This document shows positions 30,218-41,545 of a stretch of 64,000 bases of DNA, piece by piece. Within the stretch, counting starts at the first letter, position 1, and every line of letters begins with the position of its first letter. The DNA is from a phage. Made by a program: the position numbers and the translations under genes. The DNA is taken from sequence record PZ386965.1, one strand, 5' to 3'. Under the pieces are notes generated by a model. That model made no database searches and had not been told where the DNA came from. It saw only the letters and a program-made list of their open reading frames with translations.

Positions 30218-31207
30218 TTATTTATAGTAAGAATTATGATTTTCGAGATAGACTTGCTCAAGGAAATCATCCCAGAAACTCATATCTACTTTTTGTTGCA
30301 TACCATTCTTGGCAGCTTGTTCTGACGCATGTTCAACTTGGTCAACGATATCTTCTAGGAATTCTTGTACAGTTTTAAACGTATGTTTACCAAGCTTAAC
30401 ATCGAGAATAAATGGAGCATCTTGAAGTGGGTAAACCAGGTCGCCGGTTTTGTAAATTTCCAATAATTGAAGTCCACCACGACATGCATGACTCAATGCT
30501 TTCCAGTCAATACCTTCGTTAGCTTCTGCCTTACGAGCACGTTCACCATAGTTCTCTTCTAGTTTAACCAGGATGGCATTGAACTCTTTATTGGTTAACG
30601 TGTCTTGGAATTTACGGTCTAACAGATTATAGAATGTTTGCTTACCTGTTTTCTCGTTTTCGGTTTCAACCCACGAAGCAAATTCACCTACAGGCAGAAC
30701 ATTCTTCATATGTGATAAACGAATTACTGCACCATTATCAAAGTATTGTCCCCATTCATTAGAACGTTTAAGGGCTTGACGAAGAACAGCCAGTCGAGAA
30801 CCCTTGACACCGTATTTAGAAGCTTGCTTACGGACATACCCTAAATAAGATTTCATGTTAGTGGTATAGAAACGAGACCTGTTATCTTGAATATACTTCC
30901 ATACATCAGGCAAATCAGATTTAACTACTAGACTTGGTGGAGTGTGAAGCATATCTAATGCGACGGTTTCACCATCCGCAGCTAGTTTAAAGAAATATTT
31001 GAGACTATACAACTCATGGTCTACGTCGTCTTTTGTGTTCTTAGAAGATGTGTTATTCGTGTTCTTGCTCATGTGTTCTTTAACGTTACCGGTCAAGATA
31101 TCACGAGCATGAGGGACATAAATTTCTTTAAAATCGACGTCAGATTCAGGAGTAGACGTTCCATAAAGGTGGCTACCAAAGTAGCTTTTCATAATTGTTT
31201 TCATCAT
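30218..31207 (-). CDS. Pol-beta-superfamily nucleotidyltransferase-like protein
   Basis: GS-x11-DxD at N-terminus (YFGSHLYGTSTPESDVDF) typical of minimal nucleotidyltransferases; 329 aa with helical C-terminal domain. Confidence 0.6.
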   Translation of the reverse strand: MMKTIMKSYFGSHLYGTSTPESDVDFKEIYVPHARDILTGNVKEHMSKNTNNTSSKNTKDDVDHELYSLKYFFKLAADGETVALDMLHTPPSLVVKSDLPDVWKYIQDNRSRFYTTNMKSYLGYVRKQASKYGVKGSRLAVLRQALKRSNEWGQYFDNGAVIRLSHMKNVLPVGEFASWVETENEKTGKQTFYNLLDRKFQDTLTNKEFNAILVKLEENYGERARKAEANEGIDWKALSHACRGGLQLLEIYKTGDLVYPLQDAPFILDVKLGKHTFKTVQEFLEDIVDQVEHASEQAAKNGMQQKVDMSFWDDFLEQVYLENHNSYYK

Positions 31208-32959: not shown

Positions 32960-33030
32960 AACGTTCTCCTCTAGTAAGTAAGGTCTACTATAACACAACC
33001 TGAGGAAAAGTAAACTGCTAAATGCCAAAA

Positions 33031-33058
33031 AGCCCCAACCTTTCGGAAGGGGCTATTA
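33031..33058 (-). terminator. rho-independent terminator after rI
   Basis: AGCCCCTTCCGAAAGGTTGGGGCT hairpin followed by TTTTTGG. Confidence 0.7.
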
Positions 33059-33060
33059 AA

Positions 33061-33363
33061 TTAGATAGATGTAGGCTCTAATTTTATTTTCATGAACTCA
33101 GCAAATTGTCTGGCGGTTTTTATGCCTTGTTCATGACATTCAAATGCATCATCACAGGGACTATTTTTGTAATGCTTTGCCATATACTTATAGAATTTTT
33201 CAGAATTCTCGACATTTTGAATTTCAAACAAAGTATATACGTTTTTAATCCCTGATTCCATAAAGTTATCAAAATATGGGTCGATATGTGCAGTACCAAC
33301 GATAGGAGTTGTTGCTGCAAAAAACCCCAGCATCGCTATGACAGCTATCGCTCTTAAGGCCAT
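33061..33363 (-). CDS. rI: lysis inhibition regulator RI (antiholin)
   Basis: MALRAIAVIAMLGFFAATTP signal-anchor then DPYFDNFMESGIKNVYTLFE, collinear with T4 RI. Confidence 0.85.
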   Translation of the reverse strand: MALRAIAVIAMLGFFAATTPIVGTAHIDPYFDNFMESGIKNVYTLFEIQNVENSEKFYKYMAKHYKNSPCDDAFECHEQGIKTARQFAEFMKIKLEPTSI

Positions 33364-33375
33364 ATAGGCCTCCTG

Positions 33376-33588
33376 TTAATTTTGGCCAGTATTTATTTTT
33401 CGCCTTTGGACGGCCTTAACATCTGTGAGGTATTTTTCCAGCTTGCGCTTGCGTGTATAATCAGCTTTAGAACCAGTTTGACGGATATCCTCATTTAAAT
33501 GAGAAATAGAATGTCCTAATTCTCTTCGGATTTCATCCAATTGGGTTACAGTAAGATTACGAAGTTGTCTTTCGTTTAATTGCTGCAT
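33376..33588 (-). CDS. hypothetical protein
   Basis: 70-aa ORF. Confidence 0.5.
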
Positions 33589-33615
33589 ATATACCTCTTG
33601 GTTAGATATTAGTAT

Positions 33616-34197
33616 TTATAACAACCCTGTCAAATCATTCCAATGCTTCCGGCATAATGACACGTATCTATCAGTATCACCAATTTCAATTTGACTGCCA
33701 TCTGTAATTGGAAGTCCGTCTTCCGTGACTCTAGCTACCATTGTGGCCTTTTTACCACAATGACAGACACCTTTAAGTTCAACAAGCTTATCGGCAATAG
33801 CCATTAATGCTTGAGAACCTTCAAATAGATTACCTTTAAAATCTGTTCGTAGTCCATATGCCATTACTGGCACATTGTATACGTCAACAATACGACTAAG
33901 TTGATACACCTTTTCAGTAGTTAAGAACTGAGCTTCGTCAACAAATACACAATGAATATCCTTTTGTGCTGCAGCCCATTTATAGAATTCAAAGATGTCC
34001 ATGTCTTTTGTAATTATATTGGCATCCTGACGAATACCAATACGAGAGACTATTTCACCTTTTGAATCACGAGTATCAATAGCCGGTTTAAGAACTAATA
34101 CACCCATGCCACGTTCTTTATAGTTATGTGCAGCAGTAAGTAATGAAGCAGACTTACCGGCATTCATAGCGGCATATGTAAAAATTAAACTAGCCAT
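33616..34197 (-). CDS. tk: thymidine kinase
   Basis: 193 aa; P-loop YAAMNAGKS; C-terminal zinc cysteines. Confidence 0.95.
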   Translation of the reverse strand: MASLIFTYAAMNAGKSASLLTAAHNYKERGMGVLVLKPAIDTRDSKGEIVSRIGIRQDANIITKDMDIFEFYKWAAAQKDIHCVFVDEAQFLTTEKVYQLSRIVDVYNVPVMAYGLRTDFKGNLFEGSQALMAIADKLVELKGVCHCGKKATMVARVTEDGLPITDGSQIEIGDTDRYVSLCRKHWNDLTGLL

Positions 34198-34206
34198 AAG
34201 AGTCCC

Positions 34207-34389
34207 TTATAGTGAATTCACGTAGTCAATGAGTTCTTGTTCTTTCCTGTCAAATGATTCCATCAATGCGTGATATTCTTCGTCCGTCAAAGGAGCATAT
34301 TCATCGTACGCATTGGTGGCTGCTTGTTCATCCAATAGGTCATGGATAAGTTCGAACAGTTTAGCTTTCTCTTCTTTAGTTAATTTCAT
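34207..34389 (-). CDS. hypothetical protein (tk.x)
   Basis: Track ORF. Confidence 0.45.
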   Translation of the reverse strand: MKLTKEEKAKLFELIHDLLDEQAATNAYDEYAPLTDEEYHALMESFDRKEQELIDYVNSL

Positions 34390-34598
34390 TTAGGTTCACC
34401 TTCTTTAACGAAATCTGGGTAAGGGTAAAATCCTGAGTAAAATCCTTCACCTTTATGATTGCTACAACCTTTGTTCGAACAGTAACACCAATAATCAAAA
34501 TCACAAGCCATTTCGTCATTGCATAAAGCAAAAACTACAGGCCATTCGCATTTTTCGCATTTAGCACCTGTAAGAATTTTTGTTTGGCTCATAACCAT
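34386..34598 (-). CDS. cysteine-rich small protein (tk.x)
   Basis: CEKCEW...CDFDYWCYC...CSNH. Confidence 0.5.
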   Translation of the reverse strand: MVMSQTKILTGAKCEKCEWPVVFALCNDEMACDFDYWCYCSNKGCSNHKGEGFYSGFYPYPDFVKEGEPK

Positions 34599-34816
34599 GT
34601 CACCTTTAAGCAGTATTCTTCTACATGCTGTTTACGACCTTTCTTATCAATAAAGGTATATTCAACGAATGTTCCAATGTAGTCTTTATCTACGTCATGT
34701 GGACTATTAATTGGACATTTAGTACGACAAATGCGTTCCCATTGACGAATAATTACTGCTTTATTTTTAGGATCAAACGGATGTGGGTAATGCACATTCA
34801 TAATAATGGTTCCCAA
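34589..34816 (-). CDS. hypothetical protein (tk.x)
   Basis: Track ORF. Confidence 0.45.
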   Translation of the reverse strand: MGTIIMNVHYPHPFDPKNKAVIIRQWERICRTKCPINSPHDVDKDYIGTFVEYTFIDKKGRKQHVEEYCLKVTWL

Positions 34817-35265
34817 TCAACAATCACAATTTCTAGTTTAGTGGAATATGTATCAAGAATTTCTTCAATGATATCCCAGTTTCCACCACCTATACCTGCA
34901 CCAATTCTTGGCATATAAATTACAGGCTTTGTTATCTTATTTTTTCCGAATTCATTTAATTCTATTATACAATTCATTAAAGCATAGTACTCAAAATTAG
35001 GTCCCGGCTCAAACTGTGTATAAAGATTAAAGCAATAAGCTTTATGGGTCTTAAAATATTTTTCATAAACCGAATAAGTCCCGAGTTTAGACTCATCTCC
35101 GAATTCGGTTTGAAGTTTATCGGCTTCTAAAATTTTTGGATAAGCCTTTGCCAATTGACCTGCTACACCGGCGCCCATTGTATGAAAACAATTGCACCCA
35201 TGAGCAATATTATTACCTTTAGAAAACAGGGCGATATTGTCGCCCTTGATATAGTTTTTAATCAC
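34798..35265 (-). CDS. macro-domain protein (ADP-ribose binding / hydrolase-like)
   Basis: Aligns by eye to macro motifs: NIAHGCNC..MGAGVAGQLAKAYP (cf NAAN..GGGVxGAI..AAG) and RIGAGIGGG (cf ISTGIYGYP). Confidence 0.6.
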   Translation of the reverse strand: MIKNYIKGDNIALFSKGNNIAHGCNCFHTMGAGVAGQLAKAYPKILEADKLQTEFGDESKLGTYSVYEKYFKTHKAYCFNLYTQFEPGPNFEYYALMNCIIELNEFGKNKITKPVIYMPRIGAGIGGGNWDIIEEILDTYSTKLEIVIVDWEPLL

Positions 35266-35605
35266 TTGCTACAAGTCCTCTAGTATAAGAGTCAACTAGA
35301 CGGTCCACCATAGAATTGCATGCTGCCTTATCTTTAGGTTCCGCCACCGAGCATTCTAATATTTGCCATTTTTTATAGTATCTTTTAATTAAAGTAGACG
35401 CCTTGAACCTACTAGACGCCCCATCTTTTTCTCCGTCTTTATATGCATATAACAATTTTTGTGAAAAATCTACTTTACACTCTTGACTTTTACCACAATA
35501 ATCAGACGCCGTTCTGTTTGTATACTCCGTTACATCAGTATATGTAGTATTAGCAAGAGCGTTAAATGAAACCAAGCCAACTATTAAAGCCAACATTTTG
35601 GTCAT
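35258..35605 (-). CDS. secreted protein in vs position (115 aa)
   Basis: Signal peptide; same length and position as T4 Vs, identity not verifiable from memory. Confidence 0.5.
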   Translation of the reverse strand: MTKMLALIVGLVSFNALANTTYTDVTEYTNRTASDYCGKSQECKVDFSQKLLYAYKDGEKDGASSRFKASTLIKRYYKKWQILECSVAEPKDKAACNSMVDRLVDSYTRGLVASD

Positions 35606-36144
35606 TCTTTTATTTCCAGTAGTTTATTTGATTTAAGGTAATTAGCCTTTTCTAGGACTTCAGAAGCATATTTACTTCCAGCACTTGTCTTCCATCCCGC
35701 ATTATATGAGGATATAGCTTTTCTTATATCCCCGTTATGTATATTTAACCAATAAGAAAATTCGATATAAGCCCATCTGGTTGAATTAGACCGCTTAGAT
35801 AGCATTTTCTTAATTTGGGCATCAGACATATTATAACCAAGCTGGTTAATTCTTGCCCTCATTGTTGGTAGATAATTTTGGAACATTCCATACGCATGGT
35901 GACCTTTCTTATCTTTAAGATTAATACCGGCAGATGATTCCTGCCATAGTATTGCGGCCATTATGTATCCAAGTCCTTTCTTATGCATATTTTCATGCGT
36001 TTTAAATTTTCCATCCTTAGAAAACTGTTCCCCAAACTGATAAGCATAATTCAAGTTATCGAGTTGGACATTACTAAAAGTATGCTCGGAGCTATGTGCT
36101 GATAATGAAAGAGCAAATAGACCAGCGAGTAGTGCTTTTCTCAT
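35602..36144 (-). CDS. secreted lytic transglycosylase-like protein (SLT domain)
   Basis: Signal peptide; SLT motifs WQESSAG, AYGMFQ, YNAGW. Confidence 0.6.
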   Translation of the reverse strand: MRKALLAGLFALSLSAHSSEHTFSNVQLDNLNYAYQFGEQFSKDGKFKTHENMHKKGLGYIMAAILWQESSAGINLKDKKGHHAYGMFQNYLPTMRARINQLGYNMSDAQIKKMLSKRSNSTRWAYIEFSYWLNIHNGDIRKAISSYNAGWKTSAGSKYASEVLEKANYLKSNKLLEIKE

Positions 36145-36152
36145 GTTTACCT

Positions 36153-36611
36153 CTAGATTTTAATCACTGCTTTAGAAGCTTTTCCTGGTAGTCGTTTATT
36201 GTTAATAATAGCCATTCTGCATTGAAGAGTCTTCATTTTGAATGCTGGATTTTCGCGACAAACTGTAAGTCCTAACCAAAGATTTCCATCAGTTATTTCT
36301 AAACGGCCTGGGCGATATTCGACACCTTCGACAAAATCTTCATCAACATCTGGACGTGCCGGCATTGATAAAAATTCTGCAACTTCTTTAACATGATTTT
36401 TTACTTTACGAAATAATTCAAAAACGTAATTCTCATCTATTTCTCTCTGGATGGCACGATCTAAGAGATGTTGAGAATACTTGATATGAAAGCCCGGTAG
36501 TCCAAGAGACTTTGCAGCATCTTTTATACTGGCATTTATTTTGCGGAACTCCGTTTCAAAGATTCGACGGAGTTTATTGCGGCGGATAAAAACGTCTGAA
36601 TTGATAGTCAT
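36153..36611 (-). CDS. regB: endoribonuclease RegB
   Basis: 152 aa in T4 regB position and size. Confidence 0.7.
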   Translation of the reverse strand: MTINSDVFIRRNKLRRIFETEFRKINASIKDAAKSLGLPGFHIKYSQHLLDRAIQREIDENYVFELFRKVKNHVKEVAEFLSMPARPDVDEDFVEGVEYRPGRLEITDGNLWLGLTVCRENPAFKMKTLQCRMAIINNKRLPGKASKAVIKI

Positions 36612-36623
36612 TTTGATTTCTCC

Positions 36624-36668
36624 TCTAGTTGACAGGTCTATAGTAACACAACTAGAGGAGAAGTAAAC
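36624..36668 (-). promoter_or_regulatory. early promoter / stem-loop cassette
   Basis: TCTAGTTG..CAACTAGA inverted repeat, GTTTAC -35 on minus. Confidence 0.5.
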
Positions 36669-36967
36669 TACTCTTTGAAAGGAATTAACTTTTTAACTGC
36701 TTTAGATACTTCGTCACGAACCTGGTGGAAGTTCTTGAGCTGTTCAAGGCGTTGTTCGTAATACGCAATCTCATCTTCTTCAAGACAATCGTCAGCGTCT
36801 TCTTTCAGATATGCCTTGTACTCATTAAAGAGGGCCCATAGGCGATTCTCAAAGTCATCAAGGCTTTGAATTTTCTTGTGCTTCGGAACAAGGCCAAAAG
36901 GATTGCTTTCAGTTATGCGTCGAGATGCTTCATAATGAGTTCCAAAGCCTGATAGGATTTGAGCCAT
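36668..36967 (-). CDS. hypothetical protein (vs.x)
   Basis: ATG overlapping upstream stop (TAATG). Confidence 0.45.
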
Positions 36968-37212
36968 TAGTATTTTTCCTCTGGTTGAAATACCGCACGA
37001 CAAGCCCACATACTAGCTTCCTTTAGGCGTTCTTTAGCACAGTTCAATTGGGACAAAGCCGTCAGAGCTTCAGGAGTATTTGCTGATAATGCTTCTTCTG
37101 CCAGGGCGTCTAGAATAAGTCCTAAACGAACTTCGGCATCTTTAATAGCGTTCACTTTACCGATTTTATCATCGGTATGCGGCTTGTAGCCTTTGATGTC
37201 TTCAATCGACAT
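36967..37212 (-). CDS. small helical protein (vs.4 position; possible Acb2-like sponge)
   Basis: 81-aa ORF with coupled start; position only. Confidence 0.4.
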
Positions 37213-37426
37213 AAGGAATTTCCTCATCTGTGGCAAGGTCATATTCGACCAATTGGATAGGCTCATTAATACCATATCCACGTACAGTGATATCAGTTGT
37301 CGGATAGTTTCCAGTAATATCACCCATTCTAAATGCTTCAATGAATGATTGCTCGCCTGAGCAACTAAACCAGGCGGCAAAACATTTTAAAACATCTTCA
37401 GACCCTTCTATAATCAATTTAGTCAT
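37202..37426 (-). CDS. hypothetical protein (vs.x)
   Basis: 74-aa ORF. Confidence 0.45.
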   Translation of the reverse strand: MTKLIIEGSEDVLKCFAAWFSCSGEQSFIEAFRMGDITGNYPTTDITVRGYGINEPIQLVEYDLATDEEIPYVD

Positions 37427-37788
37427 TATAGACTCTCGGTAAAGGTACGAGCGATAACGTCGCGCTGCTGTTCCGGAGTCAGAGAGTTAAAGCGAACTGC
37501 ATAACCGGATACACGGATGGTCAGCTGCGGATATTTTTCCGGATGCTTAACTGCATCTTCCAGAGTTTCACGACGCAGAACGTTAACGTTCAGGTGCTGA
37601 CCACCTTCAATTTTAACTTTAGGTTGATGTTCAATTTCAATTTCACGAGCATTCAAACCGTAGAAAATTTCTGGATCTACAATAGCGTCTTCTTTAAAAG
37701 TCTTAGAGACAATAATCCGGGCTTGAGTACCGTCTTCAAAATAAATAGTGCCTTTATGTTCACCTTCAAGAATTTGATATGCTTTCAT
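37426..37788 (-). CDS. autonomous glycyl radical cofactor (GrcA/YfiD-like)
   Basis: C-terminal glycyl radical motif RVSGYAVRF in ...[60 protein letters not shown]. Confidence 0.9.
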
Positions 37789-37794
37789 ATAACC

Positions 37795-38103
37795 TCAATT
37801 AGAAAATAAATTTATCCAAGTTTTTTCTTTAATCAAAAATGGGTCGGAATTAAACGCCATTAAACTTTGGGTGATTAATCCTTTAAATGGCCCATCAATA
37901 AATTCCATTTTGAAATGCGGAATACTAGTCATCAACCGTGCATTAGGAGCGGTACAAAGAACCTGCTGCCCTGCGAACGGACCTTTAGTCAAACGGTATC
38001 GTTTAGGTTTAAAATGGTAAATCTCATAATTTTCTACAAGTGCCCTTTTATTGCATACTGGACTGTTATAACAATATTCAAAAACTTCAATAGTTGTCAT
38101 CAT
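37795..38103 (-). CDS. hypothetical protein (vs.x)
   Basis: ATGA-coupled start. Confidence 0.45.
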   Translation of the reverse strand: MMTTIEVFEYCYNSPVCNKRALVENYEIYHFKPKRYRLTKGPFAGQQVLCTAPNARLMTSIPHFKMEFIDGPFKGLITQSLMAFNSDPFLIKEKTWINLFSN

Positions 38104-41086: not shown

Positions 41087-41545
41087 TTATAGGATGGTAG
41101 TGAGCACCTTATATAACGATTTGCCCATTACATATTCCCATTGAGAAGGTTTAATTAAAGCGAATGCATCAAATTCAGGAATCTGACGTCCGTCTGGGAA
41201 TGTATGATAGGAATTACAAACACTGTTTCTGAATTGCTCGTGCTCTACAGGGATGGTATATAGGAACAGATGAATATTCTTATTGTCTGAGTAATGATGT
41301 TCACCTAGGTCTTTCAGGAAGGCAGGGTCATATTGTGTAAACCCAGTTTCTTCTTCGCATTCACGAATAGCGGCTTCGATAGGAGATTCACCTGGCTCGA
41401 CACGGCCTTTAGGAATATCCCACCGATGAGCTAAAGAACCTTTAGGACGAGAACCAGTTACACGCCCCATGAATAATTCTTTATCTTCGGTAAGGAAAAT
41501 AATACCGGCTGATAGTTCTTTCACTTTATTTTTCTTACTCATCAT
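41087..41545 (-). CDS. nudE: Nudix hydrolase NudE
   Basis: Nudix box GRVEPGESPIEAAIRECEEETG. Confidence 0.9.
   Translation of the reverse strand: MMSKKNKVKELSAGIIFLTEDKELFMGRVTGSRPKGSLAHRWDIPKGRVEPGESPIEAAIRECEEETGFTQYDPAFLKDLGEHHYSDNKNIHLFLYTIPVEHEQFRNSVCNSYHTFPDGRQIPEFDAFALIKPSQWEYVMGKSLYKVLTTIL

Follow-up and report, generated by a model that had tools for sequence, protein, structure and literature searches.

A T4-like phage carries an ortholog of tk.4 (adfM), a stand-alone macrodomain with a SCO6735-type glutamine at its predicted active site

[quoted passage not shown] T4 lacking both adfA and adfN was still resistant to DarTG2, and a further factor was therefore predicted in 2025 (PMC11825919). 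In a transposon sequencing study on a DarTG2 host (HIDEN-SEQ), tk.4 was the single significant T4 hit; the phage did not need the gene on E. coli K-12 that lacked DarTG2, and tk.4 reads fell specifically when DarTG2 was present (bioRxiv 10.1101/2025.11.20.689424). A clean T4 tk.4 knockout was sensitised to DarTG2 and the gene was renamed adfM (bioRxiv 10.1101/2025.11.20.689424), so that the requirement for it under DarTG2 has been shown for T4, by genetics alone and in one preprint. The same preprint (November 2025) proposed, from its genetic data only, a role for the protein in stripping DNA of ADP-ribose (bioRxiv 10.1101/2025.11.20.689424). The domain itself had been described long before, as an A1pp/macro domain was reported in tk.4 orthologs in 2006 (PMC1524935), and in GenBank the gene is variously annotated as 'macro domain protein', 'phosphatase' or 'Poa1p-like'. 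Our full-text literature searches found no further papers on tk.4/AdfM function.

Other proteins that act against DarT have been described. Chimallivirus macrodomains were independently named AdfM, and one of them, PhiKZ gp104, strips thymidine-linked ADP-ribose (T-ADPr) from oligonucleotides in vitro (PMC13309987); the strategy is therefore workable for phages. ICP1 AdfB, which has no macrodomain, neutralises DarT by direct binding. Among cellular macrodomains, SCO6735 removes thymidine-linked ADP-ribose from DNA and protects against DarT (PMC9411070). Neither the Lys nor the Asp of TARG1 and DarG is present in it, and Gln85 fills the Lys position; the Q85A and N27S substitutions abolished its activity or nearly so (PMC9411070). 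In simulations of SCO6735, the Gln contacted the ring oxygen of the distal ribose, and the mechanism proposed for thymidine-linked ADP-ribose is water-mediated and independent of lysine (PMC9411070).

The DNA analyzed here is a stretch of 64,000 nucleotides (the window). Over 4 kb around tk.4 it is 98–99% identical to several Escherichia Tequatroviruses, e.g., vB_EcoM_LNA2, and the window is therefore from a T4-like phage. The 155-aa ORF that had been predicted in this region was found exactly at its predicted place and on the minus strand (Table 1). It begins with GTG, which is the tk.4 start in this phage clade, with ATG in its place in T4, Sf24, RB49 and CC31. This start is secure, because the conserved residues G8, H22, G23 and N25 all precede the first in-frame ATG (M30) and because the ATG of T4 lies at the identical position. 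The GAGGA upstream of it is a putative ribosome-binding site. Compared with T4, 47 codons of the gene differ synonymously and 27 non-synonymously, a ratio that points to purifying selection, and its homologs are encoded in 2788 of 50,697 phage records. Judged by this conservation, tk.4 is a genuine gene and no chance ORF. When Tk.4 was used as a tblastn query, no second macro-like sequence was found in the window, the next best match having an E-value of 0.08.

Table 1. Positions of tk.4, its sequence elements and surrounding genes in the window
Feature	Position	Strand	Remark
Glycine-rich loop 2 (phosphate-binding loop), residues 117-128	34882..34917	-	YMPRIGAGIGGG
Gln84 codon	35014..35016	-	CAG; site of DarG K80, TARG1 K84 and SCO6735 Gln85
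Loop-1 region, residues 19-43	35137..35211	-	NIAHGCNCFHTMGAGVAGQLAKAYP; with H22, N25 and G31-x-G33
Asn25 codon	35191..35193	-	Invariant residue
GC-rich hairpin, tk.4 codons 7-13	35228..35246	-	AGGGCGA-CAATA-TCGCCCT, then GTTTTCT; terminator-like match
tk.4 / adfM CDS	34798..35265	-	155 codons and a stop; one macro domain
tk.4 start codon	35263..35265	-	GTG, within the final vs codons (GTGATTAA)
Shine-Dalgarno-like GAGGA	35276..35280	-	10 nt 5' of the tk.4 GTG; T4 also has one (CGAGGA)
vs (valyl-tRNA synthetase modifier)	35258..35605	-	Upstream neighbour, same order as in T4; stop codon TAA at 35258..35260
tk.3	34589..34816	-	Downstream neighbour; T4 ORF at the same position
Cys-rich ORF	34386..34598	-	70 aa, between tk.1 and tk.3
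tk (thymidine kinase)	33616..34197	-	So annotated in near-identical phages
RlaP-family nucleotidyltransferase ORF	30218..31207	-	329 aa
Glycyl-radical domain ORF	37426..37788	-	120 aa
NUDIX hydrolase ORF	41087..41545	-	152 aa, adjoins the lysozyme gene

The product of tk.4 was assigned to the macro domain family by several methods. Pfam PF01661 matched it with 28 bits (gathering score 22), the match covering residues 22–136 and profile positions 2–117 of 118. A phmmer search against the PDB returned BT1257 (2e-10) and also Poa1p, SCO6735, DarG and TARG1, and a profile of 78 homologs matched these five macrodomains with E-values between 1e-17 and 6e-12. The AlphaFold2 model (pLDDT 95.9, pTM 0.91) has the three-layer alpha/beta/alpha macro fold. 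The original prediction of a macro domain was therefore borne out by the Pfam score, the matches to solved macrodomains and the model, and the two glycine-rich loops on which it had been based are both present (Table 1). The ORF thus encodes a macrodomain that stands alone and belongs to the ALC1-like class, which includes TARG1, DarG, SCO6735 and Poa1p, and its product is predicted to bind ADP-ribose.

The closest described relative of this protein is T4 Tk.4, also of 155 aa, to which it aligns over the full length and without gaps (129 of 155 residues identical, 83%). Both genes occupy the same position between vs and tk.3 and have a start that overlaps the vs stop, and the two proteins share all invariant residues. 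They differ at 27 positions, one of which lies in loop 2 (residue 127, G here and K in T4). On sequence and position, the window ORF is an ortholog of T4 tk.4, i.e., of adfM (anti-DarT factor, macrodomain). By analogy, an allele that is 83% identical would act like T4 Tk.4 against DarTG2. The original prediction had implied that a phage macro domain at this locus was new. This was not the case, as the domain was reported in 2006, its function in 2025, and GenBank labels exist; the finding of an anti-DarTG2 macrodomain in tk.4 is correct and already known.

Divergence of tk.4 is not exceptional among the genes of this region. Identities to T4 are 83% for tk.4, 67% for vs, 76% for regB, 82% for tk and 97% for tk.3; the possibility that tk.4 is an unusually T4-divergent gene was considered and rejected, since its neighbors vs, regB and tk have comparable or lower values. 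DNA sequences of T4 and Sf24 were also compared. These are 98–100% identical in vs and up to ~40 nt into tk.4, only 35–72% identical over the body of tk.4, and again 97% identical in tk.3. The body of tk.4 thus behaves as a divergent cassette that is swapped among otherwise near-identical Tequatroviruses. Database alleles form three classes by identity to the window ORF (95–99%, 80–90% and below 60%), all three of which have N25, Q84 and the loop glycines.

The 5' breakpoint of this swap between T4 and Sf24 coincides with a conserved hairpin, which starts 18 nt into the coding sequence, has a calculated stability of about -12 kcal/mol and is followed by a U-rich tract. The stem is also present in T4, in Sf24 and in the distant RB49 (47% amino acid identity), and is formed with the GC-rich codons GGC and GCC. 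It was absent in CC31 and in Klebsiella phage 15882-1 when upstream and 5' sequences were compared. Attenuation and stabilization of the RNA are possible roles of this hairpin; it may also be a chance product of the codons for G-D and I/V-A-L.

Conservation within the T4-type family is concentrated in the predicted ADP-ribose pocket. The glycine-rich loops M30-G31-A32-G33 and P119-R-I-G-A-G-I-G-G-G128 show little or no variation among 121 homologs; P119, I121, G122 and G124 are invariant, N25 is found in 120 of 120 sequences and H22 in 119 of 121. Gln84 is present in all 121 T4-type sequences, which reach down to ~37% identity. To compare the catalytic site with that of other families, we aligned Tk.4 of the window, T4 and RB49 with solved structures (whose sequences were rebuilt from HMMER output) and with macrodomains of PhiPA3, the PhiKZ type (KTN4) and SU10. 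Loop 2 aligns with PRIGCGLAGG of BT1257 and SCO6735, N25 with DarG N22 and SCO6735 N27, and H22 with SCO6735 H24. HMMER, MAFFT and hhalign alignments agreed on the register of Q84. In the HMMER profile, this residue is aligned with the Gln of BT1257, which is the best PDB match and itself closely related to SCO6735 (E 7e-53), and in the hhalign comparison with SCO6735 (probability 98.4%) HGCN corresponds to H24-V-C-N27 and NLYTQ to NMIGQ85. In SCO6735, His24 and Asn27 hold the Gln in position.

In contrast to the Y-T-Q of the T4 type, a T-K is present at the catalytic site of DarG (Taq, K80, and Mtb), of TARG1 (K84), and of chimallivirus (PhiKZ, K78) and kuravirus proteins. The Gln84 feature is not mentioned in the HIDEN-SEQ preprint or in the chimallivirus AdfM paper (PMC13309987). 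The sole new mechanistic element of our analysis, and a modest one, is this invariant Gln in place of the Lys found in DarG and chimallivirus AdfM.

These observations, together with the T4 genetics, suggest a function for the protein. We consider it likely that the tk.4 ortholog is an orphan 'antitoxin' that hydrolyses the thymidine-ADP-ribose made by DarT2, using Gln/Asn chemistry of the SCO6735 kind. During infection, tk.4 would probably be co-expressed with its neighbors on the minus strand. DarT2 released from the DarTG2 system of the host would place ADP-ribose on thymidines in single-stranded DNA and thereby block replication. The cleft between the two glycine-rich loops of AdfM would bind the DNA-attached ADP-ribose, and, by analogy with SCO6735, Gln84 and Asn25 would position the distal ribose while water acts as the reactive species. 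Hydrolysis of the bond between ribose and thymine would yield free ADP-ribose and a DNA template that can be replicated. We infer such T-ADPr hydrolysis both for the T4-type AdfM family and for the window allele by analogy with the characterized macrodomains.

Another possibility is that the protein protects mainly by stoichiometric binding or occlusion of DarT2 without hydrolysis, as do ICP1 AdfB and the C-terminal domain of DarG. DarT is inhibited in vitro even by the catalytically dead SCO6735 Q85A, DarG K80A and TARG1 K84A, SCO6735 being the best inhibitor (PMC9411070); since dead SCO6735 inhibits by binding, protection might not require hydrolysis. AdfB is a precedent for a block by direct binding, and the swapping of tk.4 cassettes would be in keeping with a co-evolving protein partner. 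However, the residues that are invariant among the 121 homologs form the ADP-ribose pocket and not a surface patch, and the 155-aa protein lacks the DarT-binding C-terminal domain of DarG (28 versus 250 bits with NCBIfam DarG), and we regard this explanation as unlikely. The labels 'phosphatase' and 'A1pp' imply instead a housekeeping enzyme, either a Poa1p-like ADP-ribose-1''-phosphate phosphatase or an O-acetyl-ADP-ribose deacetylase, which seems quite improbable. These labels are homology transfers, Poa1p has Ser at the site of the invariant Gln84, and, to our knowledge, the T4 RNA repair enzymes (Pnk and Rnl) make no Appr-1''-p. In addition, DarTG2 sensitivity is the sole phenotype recorded for the gene (bioRxiv 10.1101/2025.11.20.689424).

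It is also conceivable, but very unlikely, that the protein reverses or tunes the ADP-ribosylation or RNAylation of host proteins by the phage enzymes Alt, ModA and ModB. T4-type phages encode three ADP-ribosyltransferases. However, Alt and Mod modify arginine, and we know of no ALC1-like macrodomain that cleaves N-glycosidic arginine linkages, these enzymes acting on ester (Asp/Glu) and thymidine linkages. Although TARG1 and SCO6735, which are ALC1-like, also act on protein-linked ADP-ribose (PMC9411070), the dispensability of T4 tk.4 on E. coli K-12 without DarTG2 (bioRxiv 10.1101/2025.11.20.689424) argues against this role, as may the occurrence of the same macrodomain family in many phage groups. 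Finally, breakdown of immune signals made from NAD, such as the gcADPR or His-ADPR of Thoeris, or another counter to NAD-based defence, is extremely improbable. The original prediction had offered counter-defence against DarT or Thoeris, or regulation of the phage's own ADP-ribosylation, as possible roles. Its DarT branch agrees with the sensitivity of the T4 knockout to DarTG2, and is right yet not new because it has been published for the T4 ortholog; the Thoeris and regulatory branches are without supporting evidence. Hydrolysis of DarT2-made thymidine-ADP-ribose thus remains the preferred explanation.

The genomic neighborhood was also examined. Gene order is common to the window and T4 (regB, vs.1, vs, tk.4, tk.3, small ORFs, tk, rI.1, rI). 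Sf24 has the same arrangement, whereas only parts of it were seen in more distant phages, with vs directly upstream of the homolog in RB49 and tk directly downstream in CC31. The macro domain gene had been described as next to thymidine kinase. This is loose: tk is close, 600 bp downstream on the same strand with three small ORFs intervening, but the direct neighbors of tk.4 are vs and tk.3. The vs stop codon overlaps the tk.4 start, and the overlap of the two genes is 8 nt here (GTGATTAA) and 4 nt by T4 coordinates, the C-terminal end of vs differing accordingly; at the other end, tk.3 and tk.4 overlap by 19 nt. The start-stop overlap of vs and tk.4 suggests translational coupling. A promoter/terminator scan of positions 33000..38000 detected 14 sigma-70-like sites, fewer than the 17.1 of shuffled controls, and so has no bearing on expression; its one notable item was the hairpin inside tk.4.

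Several other ORFs in the window were noted. The Cys-rich ORF (CEKCEWP...CNDEMAC...CYCSNKGCSNH) had no tblastn match in the T4 locus; Sf24 DNA is 77–90% identical over it, and the corresponding Sf24 ORF is annotated only as hypothetical, 'similar to phage vB_EcoM_112 gp115'. It may code for a zinc-ribbon-like protein. A NUDIX hydrolase (Pfam 2e-16) is encoded ~6 kb from tk.4 and, judged by position, is likely the ortholog of T4 nudE/e.1. T4 NudE hydrolyses ADP-ribose, and it is tempting to speculate that the NUDIX product could dispose of ADP-ribose freed by AdfM. Another ORF encodes a glycyl-radical domain on its own (Pfam Gly_radical, 2e-18). It resembles a 'spare part' glycyl-radical cofactor and is probably the vs.6 glycyl-radical ORF of the 2006 comparison of T4-like phages (PMC1524935). 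Similarly, the RlaP-family nucleotidyltransferase (RNA repair pathway, DNA polymerase beta-like; Pfam 6e-13) is probably the nrdC.11 nucleotidyltransferase ORF noted in that study (PMC1524935).

A more specific version of the preferred explanation is that T4-type AdfM is a non-DarG, almost exclusively phage-borne branch of ALC1-like macrodomains that takes ADP-ribose off thymidine independently of lysine, with Gln84 and Asn25 positioning the substrate, as proposed for SCO6735. We hold this version only tentatively, with somewhat less than even confidence. If it is true, phages would have recruited anti-DarT2 de-ADP-ribosylases at least two times, as a Lys type in chimalliviruses and kuraviruses and as a Gln type in many myoviruses, the T4-like ones among them, and the swapping of tk.4 cassettes could reflect adaptation to DarT2 variants or to additional substrates. 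If enzymology agrees, the lysine-independent mechanism would extend to a very large phage family, found in ~5% of phage records. In practical terms, adfM is the correct label for the gene in this phage, and it predicts resistance of the phage to hosts with DarTG2. Such a prediction is relevant to phage therapy and to forecasts of host range.

Comparison with known macrodomains shows how far the similarity to each of them goes. Tk.4 fails the DarG family by sequence. The DarG macrodomain (Taq, 5m31/5m3e; Mtb, 5m3i) is ~21% identical to it and shares the loop-1 Asn (N22 in DarG, N25 in Tk.4), but the catalytic Lys80 is replaced with Gln. The NCBIfam DarG model (NF048014) gave 28.1 bits, with a cutoff of 250, and aligned only over profile positions 19–146 of 338; the C-terminal DarT-binding domain of DarG is missing from Tk.4. 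No darT was found beside tk.4, the neighbors being vs and tk.3. Two of the more distant homologs (from a Nitrospirae MAG assembly and from metagenome contigs) lie on phage-like contigs without a recognisable toxin and are therefore uninformative as to a pairing of Gln-type macrodomains with darT. A plasmid collection contained 32 weak Tk.4 homologs, none of them annotated as DarG.

TARG1/OARD1 (PDB 4j5r) was the top Foldseek match (E 4.6e-10; profile E 4.6e-16) and has a similar loop 2 (MPRIGCG), but its dyad Lys84/Asp125 corresponds to Gln84/Gly126 in Tk.4. Poa1p (PDB 6lfq), the yeast ADP-ribose-1''-phosphate phosphatase, differs from Tk.4 in the Ser at the Gln84 site, in a divergent C-terminal half and in having a small molecule as its substrate. 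Chimallivirus AdfM (PhiKZ gp104, PhiPA3 gp108) is also phage-encoded, stand-alone and directed against DarTG2, and has the same gene name. It nevertheless represents a separate lineage (17–18% identity), which shares the loop-1 Asn (N23) but has Lys (K78, in FPTK) in place of the Gln of the T4-type YTQ, and it is imported into the phage nucleus.

The active-site Gln of Tk.4 is shared with the Gln-type ALC1-like macrodomains SCO6735 and BT1257 (PDB 5e3b and 2fg1/2afc; ~23–30% identity), where IGQ corresponds to YTQ and where the essential Gln85 of SCO6735, at the Lys position of DarG and TARG1, aligns with Gln84. T4-type AdfM thus carries a SCO6735-type, and not a DarG-type, active-site signature. 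By sequence, however, it is no SCO6735 ortholog. The pairwise match is weak (23% identity, E 2e-10), the DNA-contacting Lys34 of SCO6735 is Ala32 in Tk.4, and the loop that follows the Gln is 5 residues shorter than in SCO6735 (HGMKTGSKG) and has no equivalent of Lys89. Because of the missing lysines and the short loop, the SCO6735 mechanism is not simply transferable to Tk.4. In addition, SCO6735 is a chromosomal, DNA-damage-regulated gene, whereas tk.4 is phage-borne. The weak pairing with SCO6735, and the similar profile E-values to all five macrodomains, place Tk.4 in a subfamily of its own. With Gln84 at the site of SCO6735 Gln85, T4-type AdfM is therefore probably DarG-like in action but not a DarG-type enzyme; most likely, it does the work of a DarG without being one and represents a separate subfamily of ALC1-like macrodomains that is carried largely by phages.
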